Below, in pieces: positions 4,660-43,412 of a stretch of 64,000 nucleotides of DNA (position 1 is the first letter of the stretch; every line of letters begins with the position of its first letter). Origin of the DNA: Enterobacter phage CC31; sequence record NC_014662.1; one strand, given 5' to 3'. The position numbers and the translations under genes are program-made. The notes beneath the pieces were generated by a model that ran no database searches, had not been told where the DNA came from, and saw only the letters and a list, made by a program, of their open reading frames with translations.

Positions 4660-5001
4660 CTATAACACACTTGACTGATGTTGTAAACGGTTCTTTCTAC
4701 ACATTCTGATGAAGTTTTCAATAGGCTCTTCTGGTCTATTGGCTGGATAGCATTTCTTCCAGTTCCACCCTCCCAGCAAGTCAAAGATTTGGTCAGGAAG
4801 AGAATCCCATGGATGTTCTCTTTCGCGGAGTTGAAGCACAATATCACCGGCTGCTTCTCTAATTCCAGTATCAAGTTTTCCATTACAAATCACGACATCC
4901 ATGAGTACTGCAAGACAACAACTATCATGGCTTCCGTATTTGTTCGGATAGTAGAAATAATGGTCAATAATGTAGCAGCAATTACGGTCTAAACCTTTCA
5001 T
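4660..5001 (-). CDS. Hypothetical Cys-rich protein
   Basis: Start chosen at MKGLDRN (ATG 5001..4999 after AGGA); C-terminal ENFIRMCRKNR tail shared with downstream genes. Confidence 0.45.
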   Translation of the reverse strand: MKGLDRNCCYIIDHYFYYPNKYGSHDSCCLAVLMDVVICNGKLDTGIREAAGDIVLQLREREHPWDSLPDQIFDLLGGWNWKKCYPANRPEEPIENFIRMCRKNRLQHQSSVL

Positions 5002-39513: not shown

Positions 39514-40797
39514 ATGGCTAACATCCATGACCTTCTGCGCGAATCAACTACAACGACGAGTTCAATTTCTGCCCGTCCTAGCCTCGTTGCATTGACTCGC
39601 GCTACTACTAAATTAATTTACTCTGATATTGTAGCTACTCAGCGTACTACTCAACCTACTGCTGCTTTCTACGGTATCAAATATTTGAACCCTAACAAAG
39701 AATTAACGTTCCTTACTGGTGCTACCTACGCAGGTCAAACTGGTACTGAGGACCGTAAATCTATTGAAACATTAACTGCTTCAAATAAAGATTCATTTGG
39801 CAAGGGTGATTTGTTCAAATACGATGACATTGTTTACAAAGTACTTGTAGATAATCCATTTGACCAGATTACTGAAACTGATTTAGAAGTTGTAATTCAG
39901 ATTTCTCTGGTTAAACTCACTACTCGTTTAATGTCTGACGCTGCTATCACTTCCAAGTTTGAAACTGCTGGAGCTGATATCGCTGAAGCTAAATTCCAAA
40001 TTGATAAATGGCAGACTCAAGTTAAATCTCGTAAACTTAAAACGAGCTTGACTGTTGAATTGGCCCAGGACCTTGAAGCTAATGGCTTTGATGCTTCCAA
40101 TTTTATCGATGATTTACTGGCTACTGAAATGGCCGATGAAATTAACAAAGACATTTTACAAAGTCTTGTGACAGTTTCAAAACGATATAAAGTTGAAGGT
40201 ATCACAGATACTGGATTCATCGATTTATCTTATGCATCTGCTCCAGAAGCTGGTCGTTCTCTGTATCGCATGGTATGCGAAATGGTTTCTCATATTCAGC
40301 GCTCAACATCCTTTACGGCAACATTCGCTGTAGCATCTACTCGTGCTGCTGCTGTTCTTGCTGCATCAGGTTGGTTGAAGCATAAACCTGAAGATGATGA
40401 TTATCTGTCACAGAACGCTTATGGTTTCCTGGCAAACGGTTTGCCTCTGTATTGCGATACTAACACTCCACTCGATTATGTAATCGTCGGTGTAGTAGAA
40501 GATATTGGTGATAAAGAAGTTGTATCGAGTATTTTCTATGCTCCATACACTGAAGGTATCGACCTTGATGACCCGGAACACGTTGGTGCATTTAAAGTAA
40601 TTGTTGACCCAGAAAGCTTACAGCCTTCTGTAGCTTTATTCGTTCGTTATGCATTGTCTGCTAACCCGTATACTGTAGCTAAAGATGAAAAGGAAGCTCG
40701 AATCATTGATGGCGGGGATATGGATAAGATGGCAGGACGTTCTGATTTATCAGTTCTTCTTGGTGTTAAGTTACCAAAAATCATCATTGAAGACTAA
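39514..40797 (+). CDS. 24: gp24 capsid vertex protein
   Basis: 427 aa (T4 427); gp23-like fold motifs. Confidence 0.92.
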   Translation: MANIHDLLRESTTTTSSISARPSLVALTRATTKLIYSDIVATQRTTQPTAAFYGIKYLNPNKELTFLTGATYAGQTGTEDRKSIETLTASNKDSFGKGDLFKYDDIVYKVLVDNPFDQITETDLEVVIQISLVKLTTRLMSDAAITSKFETAGADIAEAKFQIDKWQTQVKSRKLKTSLTVELAQDLEANGFDASNFIDDLLATEMADEINKDILQSLVTVSKRYKVEGITDTGFIDLSYASAPEAGRSLYRMVCEMVSHIQRSTSFTATFAVASTRAAAVLAASGWLKHKPEDDDYLSQNAYGFLANGLPLYCDTNTPLDYVIVGVVEDIGDKEVVSSIFYAPYTEGIDLDDPEHVGAFKVIVDPESLQPSVALFVRYALSANPYTVAKDEKEARIIDGGDMDKMAGRSDLSVLLGVKLPKIIIED

Positions 40798-40803
40798 AAG
40801 AAA

Positions 40804-40826
40804 GGGAACCTCACGGTTCCCTTTTG
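40804..40826. terminator. Bidirectional hairpin terminator between gene 24 and convergent minus-strand gene
   Basis: gggaaccTCACggttccc followed by tttt on plus and T-rich run on minus. Confidence 0.6.
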
Positions 40827-40829
40827 TAG

Positions 40830-41375
40830 TTATAAAGCAAATATATCGAATGTTGGTGCGTATTTTTCTTTAAATCTCTGATAGATTTCTTTCTCGTACA
40901 GATTGTAGCAAGGTATACCATGACGCTTGGCTATATCAACGGCCACTCGTGTCCCTCCAGTAACGCTAGAGAGTTTTATTGGAGCATAGAATAGTACCAT
41001 ATCCACAGGTGACTGGCAATCCTCTCCGAGCACCTGAAGTGCATTGCGGGCAAATAGAGTCTTCACTATATCCCGGCACTCATCCCAGTAGCTTGTCACT
41101 TCTCTTGCTTTAATTACACTCCTGATTCTCACTTCATTTGGAAAGTCTTTCCACACCTTTACTCCAACTCCAGTTTTAAGACCATTGAAGCCTTCGTATG
41201 GTATGATACGTAATGAACGTTCACGGTCGTATCTACTGAGCCATGATTCATCTGCACCAGGAGCACCTCCCGAATACGAAAAATGGCCTGACTCCGAAAG
41301 AGCCTGACCAGTTAATGACATGACATCTAAAACACGACGTGGCGTCTCTCGAGAACCGATTAACGCCAAACGCAT
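40830..41375 (-). CDS. DprA/Smf-like Rossmann (SLOG-type) protein
   Basis: 181 aa; LALIGSRETP and SGGAPGADESW resemble DprA motifs (GSR; SGxARGxD); no T4 counterpart recalled at this position. Confidence 0.5.
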   Translation of the reverse strand: MRLALIGSRETPRRVLDVMSLTGQALSESGHFSYSGGAPGADESWLSRYDRERSLRIIPYEGFNGLKTGVGVKVWKDFPNEVRIRSVIKAREVTSYWDECRDIVKTLFARNALQVLGEDCQSPVDMVLFYAPIKLSSVTGGTRVAVDIAKRHGIPCYNLYEKEIYQRFKEKYAPTFDIFAL

Positions 41376-42379
41376 TAGTTACTTACCAGTTCAATCCAAA
41401 CTGGACGAATTACGCCTTGCACGTAATTGACAAGTTCTTTCTTGACTACATCAGGATTATCAGCGTCAGTAATGAAGATTTCTTCACGGCCAGCTTCTTC
41501 CAGAATATCCTGGACAGTAAGACCCATAACTTTACCAAAGTCCTTTGGACCAACTTGGCCAATCTTACTGATAACGTTATTGACTCGGTTCAGAGTAGCA
41601 TAAGCTGCCAGCGTAGAGAAAGCAACCTTATCAACATCAGTTAATTCAACCTTAGCTTTAATAGGCTTATCGGATTTAGCTTTCTCAGAGAACTTGGAGT
41701 TCTTGCATTTAATAGCTACGCGAGAACCATTAGGGAAAAATTTAGGGTAGCATGGTTTCAGAACGTAGCCTTCGGCGATATTACTTTCTGATACAACCGC
41801 TTGGAATGGCATAGTATTAGCTTCTTCAAGACCATGAGCTTCAATAGCTTGATTATAGCGATTAACTACAACATCCAGCATATTAGGAATTTGAATCAGG
41901 TCATCGAATTTACCACGGCCCAGAAGTGGAGCCATTTTAAACCCAAAGACGTTACACATACGTTCCATCATAAAATCATCAACGTAAGACGATTCACCTG
42001 ATTCGGTAGTCACTTTAATATCAAAGACGTAGAAGTCTTTTTCACCGTAATCAACACCCTTCTGAATTCCGCCGCCAGCAAATTCACCAAAGATTTGATA
42101 AGCTACTGTAGCACCAGTCAGTGCAGCTTGAACAGCTTTAAAGGACTCGTTATAACGACCCATGATAACCATATAGCCAAAGAAGTCTTCTGCTGGCAGA
42201 ATAGGACCAGTACGCTTGGCAGGTTGGATGCTATCTTTAGTTACGATAACAGAGAAGTTAGTGCCGTGAATTTTCTCACGCGCTACCCAAGTTTCAGAGA
42301 CATCAAAACCAGCATTACGAATACGCTCAATGAATTTACCGTTGTAGTGGTTCTCGAGCGTTGAATATTTCTCAAACAT
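41375..42379 (-). CDS. rnlB: RNA ligase 2 (Rnl2)
   Basis: 334 aa (T4 334); adenylylation site [13 protein letters not shown]; [25 protein letters not shown] match T4 Rnl2. Confidence 0.95.
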
Positions 42380-42387
42380 ATTTCACC

Positions 42388-42648
42388 TTAGAATTTAATT
42401 TTGAAAGATTTGCCCTGGTAGTCAGAATTGAACTCATAAGAGAACTTTTCTTTATTCAGGAATCCTTTTATAGCGGTTTCATGAGAATACCACTCACTTG
42501 GAATAATATAAAGGGCTTCAAACTTGCCGCGGGCGGCAGCGTCGCGAAGATGGTCTTCAATATGGGTTTGAACTTCTTTTGGTAAATTTGTATTAGCTGA
42601 CTCAGCCATATTCCTGTAGAAATTAGCAAGACTCATTATAATCACCAT
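42388..42648 (-). CDS. Hypothetical protein (T4 24.2 position)
   Basis: 86 aa ORF. Confidence 0.5.
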   Translation of the reverse strand: MVIIMSLANFYRNMAESANTNLPKEVQTHIEDHLRDAAARGKFEALYIIPSEWYSHETAIKGFLNKEKFSYEFNSDYQGKSFKIKF

Positions 42649-42750
42649 ATAAATATCAATAATTAGGGAGGGTTCTATCCTTCTATCGTCAAGCGTATGT
42701 ACTAGAAAGAATCCGTGAAACCATTATACCACGCGGATTCTTTAAGCATA

Positions 42751-43332
42751 TTATAGAGGGATTACTTTATACTTCTTATTGCCACGAGCATCACGCTTAC
42801 AAACTAATTTGCACTTCATGCCGCTTGTGATAGTGTAATCTTCATCAACCTTCATCCGCATCCAGTCTAATACCATTCCAGATGGGTTCAAAGATTTTTC
42901 AACTTCAACCATAATTTTAGTGCCAGACTTATAAAACTTAGATTCTTGTTGCTCATAGTCAGATAGTGCGCGAGCAAACGCAGATGGGCTTAAGAATTTA
43001 TTATAACCGTGAGCAGCAGCCACAAATGTATTATCTAAAGCATGTTTGATATTTTTGATTACGACTGTTGCGTAACCGATGTGTTTTTCTGGATAGTGAG
43101 TCATTACAAAGTCCTCATGAACTGCGAAAGTTTTTTGATGACGAGATTTTACATCAACATTTGATAAGCGTTTACGATAAACCACTTTCTCTTTTCGTTT
43201 AGATTTAGCTTTTGCCGATTCAACTTTAGCATAATATAAAGCTGCTTCTTCGGGTTTAATACCCGCTTCTCTCGCAATTTCAATAAAACTCAATCCGCAC
43301 TCATGCTTAAAATGAATCTCAATCGGTGTCAT
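42751..43332 (-). CDS. Hypothetical protein (T4 24.3 position), possible N-terminal HTH
   Basis: 193 aa ORF; basic. Confidence 0.5.
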   Translation of the reverse strand: MTPIEIHFKHECGLSFIEIAREAGIKPEEAALYYAKVESAKAKSKRKEKVVYRKRLSNVDVKSRHQKTFAVHEDFVMTHYPEKHIGYATVVIKNIKHALDNTFVAAAHGYNKFLSPSAFARALSDYEQQESKFYKSGTKIMVEVEKSLNPSGMVLDWMRMKVDEDYTITSGMKCKLVCKRDARGNKKYKVIPL

Positions 43333-43385
43333 GGTAATATCCTACAGTAAAAGATGTTGATATAATACCACTCTCCAGAAAAAGC

Positions 43386-43412
43386 AAAAGGAGCCTTCGG
43401 GCTCCTTTTAAT
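43386..43412 (-). terminator. UUCG hairpin terminator downstream of hoc
   Basis: ggagccTTCGggctcc flanked by T-runs on both strands. Confidence 0.55.

Follow-up and report, generated by a model that had tools for sequence, protein, structure and literature searches.

The gene considered here lies in a 64,000-nucleotide (nt) stretch of the genome of Enterobacter phage CC31 (NC_014662.1), which is referred to below as the window. It occupies positions 40830..41375 on the minus strand, directly downstream of the RNA ligase 2 gene rnlB, and encodes a protein of 181 amino acids (aa) that, by its modeled structure, belongs to the SLOG superfamily. We tentatively predict, based on its conserved residues and on the structural model, that this protein is a non-catalytic accessory of phage nucleic-acid repair or counter-defence, which binds nucleotides or single strands and is co-expressed with RNA ligase 2 (Rnl2); the probability of this reading is, in our estimate, about 0.35. 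The link between the SLOG gene and rnlB is one of synteny. The arrangement of the two genes with overlapping stop and start codons recurs across T4-like genera and appears to be undescribed, whereas the family and the fold have been assigned before; in the literature searched, we found no description of a coupling between Rnl2 and a DprA or SLOG protein.

A conserved gene with a SLOG fold

The open reading frame (ORF) starts with ATG and is a genuine, conserved gene under purifying selection, not a chance reading frame, because its product matches PHROG 768 over the full length (E 1.7e-57, residues 2-174 against positions 5-181 of the 191 in the profile), because homologs were found by tblastn in 1,359 of 50,697 phage records, and because the dN/dS values relative to two Karamvirus relatives are 0.03 and 0.05. 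The source phage is itself a T4-like member of the genus Karamvirus, about 94% identical at the nucleotide level to Enterobacter phage PG7, and the SLOG and Rnl2 proteins of the window are identical to those of the IMG/VR contig UViG_650627040_000001. The DprA/Smf-like motifs noticed in the sequence-only reading, an initial analysis of the window made without database searches, are present as it described them: IGSRE at residues 6-10 and SGGAPGADES at residues 35-44.

Two database records of close homologs deserve a comment. Compared with the window and with two more relatives, the PG7 copy (NC_023561; positions 4780-4985 of locus L001) has one extra base in each of two homopolymer runs, GG becoming GGG and AAC becoming AACC, due to which the RefSeq annotation of PG7 retains only a 143-aa C-terminal fragment; the insertions reflect either a sequencing error or a recent pseudogene. 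In Aeromonas phage ZPAH1, the SLOG homolog (QQG34024.1; 3986-4552 of locus L002) is called "RNA ligase" in GenBank, a label apparently transferred by mistake from the neighborhood.

The AlphaFold2 model of the protein, obtained with a 43-sequence alignment, has a predicted local distance difference test score of 93.9 and a predicted template modeling score (pTM) of 0.88. It is a three-layer alpha/beta sandwich with a parallel sheet, similar to solved members of the superfamily. In a Foldseek search against PDB, the top eight matches were all DprA of Helicobacter pylori (HpDprA), with E-values from 9e-5 to 8e-4, followed by the SLOG domain of ThsA, ShosA, LOG proteins, and molybdenum cofactor carrier proteins. 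The pocket also has the SLOG layout, with a Gly-rich loop after strand 1 and conserved residues after later strands in alignments of 43 and 150 sequences. Judged by the model, the fold is that of the SLOG superfamily with DprA the nearest member by a small margin, as the sequence-only reading had supposed, and no unrelated fold emerged from the structural check that it proposed. When PDB sequences were searched with the single sequence, only a glycosyl hydrolase and a dockerin protein matched (E 0.6-0.8), and these matches were dismissed as due to chance.

By sequence the protein is also near DprA, yet it falls outside the curated DprA family. The Pfam DprA profile (PF02481) yields 13.8 bits against a cutoff of 29.6, over residues 3-43 only and beginning at profile position 47, and the TIGR00732 dprA model does not match the protein at all, its relatives reaching at most 19 bits against a cutoff of 191. 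DprA proteins have a full domain of about 205 aa, flanked by a SAM domain, a winged helix, or both; this arrangement is absent from the 181-aa window protein, in which no other domain was detected. Among 43 family members scanned with Pfam, 37 have a weak DprA match and eight match LDcluster4, and none matches YpsA or YAcAr. Nor does the protein carry the LOG signature PGGxGTxxE: it reads T139-G-G-T-R-V-A145 with a near-invariant Ala three positions after the Thr, and it has no Pfam Lysine_decarbox match.

The Rossmann domain of DprA (H. pylori structures 4LJK, 4LJR, and 5MLL; R. palustris 3MAJ) is thus the closest known relative, and it shares with the window protein the G-S-R and L-x-x-R-N motifs, the SGGAxGxD loop, and the glycine of GG(T/S). 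However, the identity to DprA is only about 16-20%, below the Pfam and TIGRFAM thresholds; an N-terminally extended DprA domain, a SAM domain, and a winged helix at the C-terminus are all lacking in the window protein; and the dimer and RecA interfaces of DprA cannot be identified in it. The genomic setting differs as well, an early/middle-type phage operon with an RNA ligase instead of a competence or recombination context.

Conserved residues of the candidate pocket

In the alignment of 43 sequences, I6, G7, S8, R9, P12, G37, A38, P39, G40, D42, Q114, G140, G141, and T142 are invariant. The near-invariant residues include L107, R110, and N111 (L, R, and N each at least 90% conserved), and the pattern was confirmed in the alignment of 150 sequences. 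Two motifs, G-S/T/A-R (with R52 of HpDprA) and F/L/Y-x-x-R-N/D (F140 to N144), were proposed by Wang et al. (2014) as diagnostic of the binding of single-stranded DNA (ssDNA) by DprA, and G164 of HpDprA also contacts the inserted base (PMC3950713). Both motifs are present in the window protein, as G7-S8-R9 and L107-F-A-R110-N111, and G141 is the counterpart of G164.

The third ssDNA-binding arginine of HpDprA, R170 (PMC12961424), aligns with D147 of the window protein. The family alignments show covariation on the helix past GGT, in which R143 is found with D, E, or Y at position 147, and A or G at position 143 is found with R or K at position 147. As far as can be told from these alignments, one basic residue is always kept on the helix face where HpDprA has R170, so that an equivalent of this arginine is retained in the family.

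In the ShosA antitoxin of the ShosTA defence system (8ZVA), ssDNA is bound by the arginines that correspond to R9 and R110. ShosA also has a DprA-type fold, which in this case is engaged in the conflict between phage and host. Unlike the window protein, it is a host protein of 36 kDa that contains a SAM domain, dimerizes, binds RecA, and is paired with a phosphoribosyltransferase toxin.

The window protein and its T4-like relatives have (F/Y/C)(W/Y)A at the position where most of the family has C-W-T. This variant was considered as the mark of an Rnl2-specific subfamily and rejected, as it also occurs in PaP1-like and other phages with no Rnl2 nearby.

Association with RNA ligase 2

In the window, rnlB (the homolog of T4 gp24.1; 41375..42379, minus strand) encodes a 334-aa ligase that matches Pfam RNA_ligase (3.9e-21), T4_Rnl2_C (2.2e-18), and PHROG 548 (1.1e-124), and is 67% identical to T4 Rnl2 in the alignment. 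Within the sequence TAATG (41373..41377, minus strand), the stop codon of rnlB overlaps the ATG of the SLOG gene, which suggests translational coupling of the two genes; comparable abutments or overlaps, of 0, 4, and 11 nt, are seen in other lineages. Downstream, a G+C-rich hairpin with a 10-bp stem and U/A runs on both sides (40801..40824), detected in the terminator scan as a minus-strand match, begins 5 bp past the SLOG stop codon, between the SLOG gene and the convergent gene 24. The hairpin resembles an intrinsic terminator working in both directions, which would close the rnlB-SLOG unit, and its position directly after the SLOG gene is counted in support of the accessory role predicted above.

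The survey of co-occurrence with rnlB in T4-like phages, which had been suggested in the sequence-only reading, was run in both directions: on 80 IMG/VR loci fetched by the SLOG profile with 6-kb flanks, and on 60 loci seeded by Rnl2. In the forward survey, Rnl2 is encoded upstream of SLOG in the same orientation, next to it or at a distance of up to about 1 kb, in 27 of the 80 loci (a count that includes locus L033). All 27 are of the T4 type, with SLOG proteins at least 36% identical to the query, and the spacing of the two genes by ORF calls is 0, -3, -10, or -21 nt, or else one or two small ORFs stand between them. In the reverse survey, the SLOG gene follows rnlB in 33 of the 60 loci and is absent from the other 27.

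The pair is found in two unrelated genome contexts. It stands beside gene 24 in Karamvirus and in phages of Klebsiella, Citrobacter, Salmonella, Serratia, Pectobacterium, and Erwinia, and it lies between srd and NAMPT in Pseudotevenvirus, for instance in RB16 and GAP161, where NAMPT is four genes downstream of SLOG. In Aeromonas T4-like phages, Rnl2 is encoded 2-5 kb upstream of SLOG in the same region (2.3 kb in ZPAH1, which was fetched separately). Same-strand adjacency is conserved, the exceptions being L033/L131 and Lazarusvirus. These observations partly bear out the earlier idea of a two-gene repair or counter-defence unit, in that same-strand adjacency, the stop/start overlap, and the recurrence in two contexts favor it, while a functional unit is not established by them.

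In six Aeromonas T4-like loci (4592-4936 of L002; L133, L135, L137, L138, and L143), the SLOG gene is directly followed by a gene encoding an RyR-domain protein, which scores 43-48 bits on the Pfam RyR profile against a cutoff of 27.4 and is 33-80% identical across the loci. Phage RyR-domain proteins hydrolyze cyclic ADP-ribose (cADPR) immune signals, according to a 2026 preprint (PMC13232231).

The viral SLOG family and its fusions

The family profile retrieved 6,379 clusters at 50% identity with E-values of at most 1e-3, and 2,515 at 1e-30, from 1.84 billion representatives. Most members are stand-alone proteins of 165-195 aa, although 39 of the top 150 are at least 250 aa long, and the median isoelectric point is 8.3-8.7. 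Pfam scans of these top 150 members revealed fusions to DUF4326 (nine members), NADAR (eight), Macro (two), RecJ-type DHH/DHHA1/OB domains (two), YAcAr SLOG in giant polyvalent proteins (two), MazG (one), and DUF7831 (two at E-values of at most 1e-4, plus P0192 in a separate scan); no fusion to an RNA ligase occurs among them. The recurrent fusion to ADP-ribose-processing domains is a trait of the family, the window protein itself being stand-alone.

Several members (P0031, P0087, P0129, P0161, and P0172; 297-387 aa) have N- or C-terminal extensions of 100-200 aa without a Pfam match, one example being a domain with the motif YEVSSKGDKRFSAF. Viral SLOG proteins may thus have partner domains that have not been described before.

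The family has been considered in the literature before. Iyer, Burroughs, Aravind and colleagues (2022) predicted from the Macro and NADAR fusions that viral SLOG proteins sense or cleave ADP-ribose derivatives (PMC9503650). The proteins in that survey belong to the same family as the window protein (PHROG 768), have the same partners NADAR, Macro, and DUF4326, and, like the window protein, are usually stand-alone and enriched in larger phages; a coupling to rnlB in T4-like phages is not mentioned there. A paper on jumbo phages from the Aravind laboratory used the name DprA/Smf for such proteins and proposed that they may serve as an additional binder of ssDNA (PMC7824862). Among the fusion partners, NADAR enzymes strip ADP-ribose from guanine in DNA and RNA, and T4 gp30.3 (AdfN) is a NADAR protein that defeats DarTG1 (PMC11543638, PMC11833690, PMC11825919). 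More generally, NADAR and Macro enzymes take ADP-ribose off DNA and RNA bases and ends (PMC11543638, PMC11833690).

Predicted role and alternatives

In the reading that we favor, the conserved pocket, formed by G7-S8-R9, S35-G-G-A-P-G-A-D42, L107-x-x-R110-N111-x-x-Q114, G140-G-T142, and one basic residue on the next helix, would hold a nucleotide moiety. This would most likely be a base, flipped out or modified, together with its phosphate on a single strand of RNA or DNA, by analogy with the complex of H. pylori DprA and ssDNA, and the SLOG protein would serve as the accessory that recognizes the substrate for a phage activity in nucleic-acid repair or counter-defence. In T4-like phages in which the gene is linked to rnlB, the protein would be made stoichiometrically with Rnl2 and would help to bring damaged nucleic acid to the ligase, or protect it; in other phages, the same domain would do its work fused to NADAR or Macro enzymes, which act on ADP-ribosylated nucleic acids, or to RecJ, which acts on single strands. 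A non-catalytic accessory of this kind is favored because conservation is highest at the residues by which DprA binds ssDNA, because the LOG catalytic motif is missing, because the RecJ, NADAR, and Macro fusion partners all act on nucleic acids, and because the coupling to the ligase is maintained. A narrower version, in which the SLOG protein is the missing specificity partner of Rnl2 that recognizes a lesion on single-stranded or nicked RNA and hands it over to the ligase, is a rather improbable prediction; the lesion may be, for example, an ADP-ribosylated or otherwise modified nucleotide, or an end broken by a host defence nuclease or ADP-ribosyltransferase.

Several observations weigh against a role tied to nucleic acids and to the ligase. 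The conserved residues are also generic ligand-pocket residues of SLOG proteins, and they do not separate the binding of nucleic acids from that of small molecules. T4 and about half of the rnlB-bearing relatives have no SLOG gene, hence the ligase can do without it. The DprA-like gene of Acinetobacter phage Konradin (Straboviridae, Lazarusvirus) is located between gene 56 and dda, away from rnlB, and in the T4-type contig L033/L131 Rnl2 is encoded about 7 kb upstream, outside the 6-kb flank. Homologs with less than about 36% identity have no Rnl2 gene within 6 kb; their neighbors belong to DNA and RNA metabolism at large and encode a Dda/RecD-like helicase, ATP-dependent DNA ligase, SbcC, PolA, and DnaB, and in two loci a PHA02142-type RNA ligase. 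The fusions of the wider family tie it to NADAR, Macro, DUF4326, and RecJ and none of them to RNA ligases, and no natural Rnl2-SLOG fusion was found. An AlphaFold2 model of Rnl2 joined to SLOG by a 30-residue (G4S)6 linker has a pTM of 0.55, with both domains well folded and no confident orientation between them, a weak test with 16 paired sequences and no predicted aligned error.

Two other potential ties to ligases were examined and discarded. An enrichment of ligases near the distant homologs amounts to three RNA-ligase and four DNA-ligase neighbors in about 53 loci, which is roughly the chance level. The 299-aa protein P0024, derived from NCBI, was considered as an Rnl2-SLOG fusion, and it consists of an internally deleted Rnl2 and an N-truncated SLOG part without GSR and SGGAPGAD; this degenerate chimera seems to stem from the decay of an rnlB-SLOG locus or from an error of assembly.

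The main rival of the nucleic-acid accessory is a possible, though still doubtful, explanation in which the SLOG protein binds, sequesters, or hydrolyzes soluble ADP-ribose-derived signals of host NAD+-based immunity (cADPR isomers, ADP-ribose, Appr>p, or AMP), its place next to rnlB being historical synteny. It is the published prediction of the Aravind group for viral SLOG proteins (PMC9503650), and it would account for the fusions to NADAR, Macro, DUF4326, DUF7831, and MazG, for the RyR-domain gene that follows SLOG in the six Aeromonas loci (PMC13232231), and for NAMPT downstream of SLOG in Pseudotevenvirus. The ThsA precedent points the same way, as its SLOG domain (7UXS) is the sensor of the Thoeris effector; however, this is a host immune sensor fused to SIR2 and a more distant match than DprA, which is closer to the window protein than either ThsA or LOG in both sequence and structure. 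The fusions also require no soluble ligand, since NADAR and Macro act on nucleic-acid-linked ADP-ribose too, and the LOG catalytic Glu motif is absent. Further, the stop/start overlap with rnlB, conserved in two contexts, is left unexplained by a soluble ligand.

A second precedent for soluble signals comes from the siphovirus DruSM1, in which deletion of ORF83 (DprA/Smf) or of ORF55, an ATP-dependent DNA ligase, reduced infectivity on hosts with AVAST type III (10.1101/2024.04.14.589459); ORF83 was modeled as AMP-binding, and its homologs are fused to DUF4326 (10.1101/2025.06.06.658234). ORF83 of this Seuratvirus is, like the window protein, a small DprA/Smf-annotated phage protein with a SLOG fold, and its modeled contacts R89, N90, T112, and D114, compared by the quoted residues only, fit the RN...CWTxD pattern of the family. 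The ligase ORF55 shows the same knockout phenotype as ORF83. In contrast to ORF83, the window protein has A131 in place of the threonine of CWT and lacks the Asp that follows, and the ORF83 phenotype is a small-plaque effect of a deletion in a siphovirus. An attempt to tie ORF83 to the family via its relative Seurat failed: no family member is detectable in Seurat (best E-value 0.49), where the candidate ORFs belong to other PHROGs, and the link stays at the level of the superfamily. The ORF83 precedent is only suggestive.

Two catalytic or recombinational roles also have to be weighed against the non-catalytic accessory. An N-glycosidase that removes ADP-ribose or a base from a modified nucleic acid or nucleotide, and so makes or cleans ends for Rnl2, would fit the coupling to the ligase and the NADAR and Macro fusions; SLOG enzymes of the LOG clade cleave N-glycosidic bonds between base and ribose-5'-phosphate, the links of ADP-ribose to bases are chemically analogous, and D42 and Q114 are invariant polar residues. 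We nevertheless regard such activity as rather unlikely: the LOG phosphoribohydrolases (5WQ3, 1WEK, 9US2) have in PGGxGTxxE an Arg/Glu catalytic pair, of which no counterpart is seen in the window protein, D42 is also kept in the SGGAxGxD loop of the non-catalytic DprA, and no catalytically active member of the family is known. A true DprA-type recombination mediator, which would bind ssDNA and load UvsX or host RecA, is unlikely, although product names in RefSeq and PHROGs say so, DprA is the nearest fold with its ssDNA-binding motifs present, and an extra ssDNA binder was suggested in the jumbo-phage survey (PMC7824862). The Pfam score stays at less than half of its cutoff and the TIGR00732 model fails to match; the alignment from profile position 47 leaves out the N-terminal strands, and the SAM and winged-helix domains are missing as well. 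Moreover, the UvsW/UvsY region that characterizes T4-like phages is present in this phage, SLOG never stands beside recombination genes in the T4-like loci surveyed, and fusions to NADAR, Macro, and DUF4326 would not be expected of a protein that loads a recombinase. The name "DprA-like DNA recombination-mediator protein" is unsupported as a function by the present evidence, and this label, carried by close relatives and thousands of phage genes, is probably wrong in that sense.

Origin of the arrangement

In T4, gene 24 ends at 108606 and rnlB at 108636, and nothing is annotated in between. The statement in the sequence-only reading that rnlB directly follows gene 24 in T4 was therefore correct, and no T4 homolog with another function is annotated at this site. 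The same reading regarded the SLOG gene as an insertion. Its absence from the site in T4 agrees with that, yet an insertion is uncertain, because the divergences of SLOG and Rnl2 mostly track each other across lineages. Indeed, the identities of SLOG and Rnl2 to the window pair mostly fall together (66 and 69%, 61 and 58%, 39 and 45%, respectively), with a discordant pair in Serratia phages (52 and 35%). On these comparisons, an old co-inherited pair that was repeatedly lost, including in the T4 lineage, seems at least as likely as a gain in the lineage of the window.

At rnlB loci without SLOG, gene 24 directly follows rnlB as in T4, or the slot is occupied by an unrelated opposite-strand ORF of 244-263 aa. 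Two such ORFs between rnlB and a gene 24 paralog, of 263 aa (6035-6826 of L094) and 244 aa (6035-6769 of L108), are unrelated to SLOG and also differ from each other. The junction of rnlB and gene 24 looks like a variable insertion hot spot. Many T4-like relatives (L010, L089, L090, L093, L094, L096, and others) have two tandem gene 24-like paralogs beside rnlB, about 65% and 57% identical to gp24 of the window, where there is one.

Layout of the putative transcription unit

The convergent neighbor of the SLOG gene is the homolog of gene 24 (39514..40797, plus strand), an ORF encoding a 427-aa head vertex protein whose counterpart is labeled gp24 in the PG7 record. On the other side of rnlB, an 86-aa ORF (42388..42648, minus strand; PHROG 3012) occupies the position of T4 gene 24.2, to which it is assigned by position only. 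It is preceded by a 193-aa ORF (42751..43332, minus strand) at the position of T4 gene 24.3, again by position only, with an N-terminal DUF2774 domain (Pfam 9.9e-21; PHROG 1566) and a C-terminal part matching PHROG 7636. For the region of this ORF, the PG7 annotation shows two ORFs that overlap, of 64 and 117 aa.

The minus-strand unit appears, from the order of genes and signals, to consist of the 193-aa DUF2774 ORF as its first gene, the 86-aa ORF, rnlB, and SLOG as the last gene, since a second terminator-like hairpin (43385..43410, minus strand; terminator scan) follows the hoc-like gene and would form the upstream boundary. Just past this terminator, at 43365-43395 on the minus strand, there are a MotA-box-like TGCTT and a possible extended -10 element with TATTAT. 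A hairpin GAATCCG...CGGATTC at 42700-42745 (minus strand), upstream of the 86-aa ORF, encloses the extended -10-like sequence TGGTATAAT. Both sites are possible early or middle promoters of the rnlB-SLOG unit.

Significance for Rnl2 and for the viral SLOG family

To our knowledge, neither an in vivo substrate nor a phenotype has been established for T4 Rnl2. A conserved neighbor of rnlB with an overlapping start codon in many T4 relatives gives a concrete handle on the natural role of this ligase. If the SLOG protein were indeed the specificity partner of Rnl2, the pair would be a new two-component RNA-repair counter-defence of phages, and the natural substrate of Rnl2 would be revealed. The SLOG family is also one of the largest uncharacterized families of phage proteins, and its fusions place it among the systems that reverse the ADP-ribosylation of nucleic acids (NADAR, Macro). 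Once it is settled which of the two its pocket holds, a nucleic acid or a soluble signal derived from ADP-ribose, thousands of phage genes would gain an annotation.

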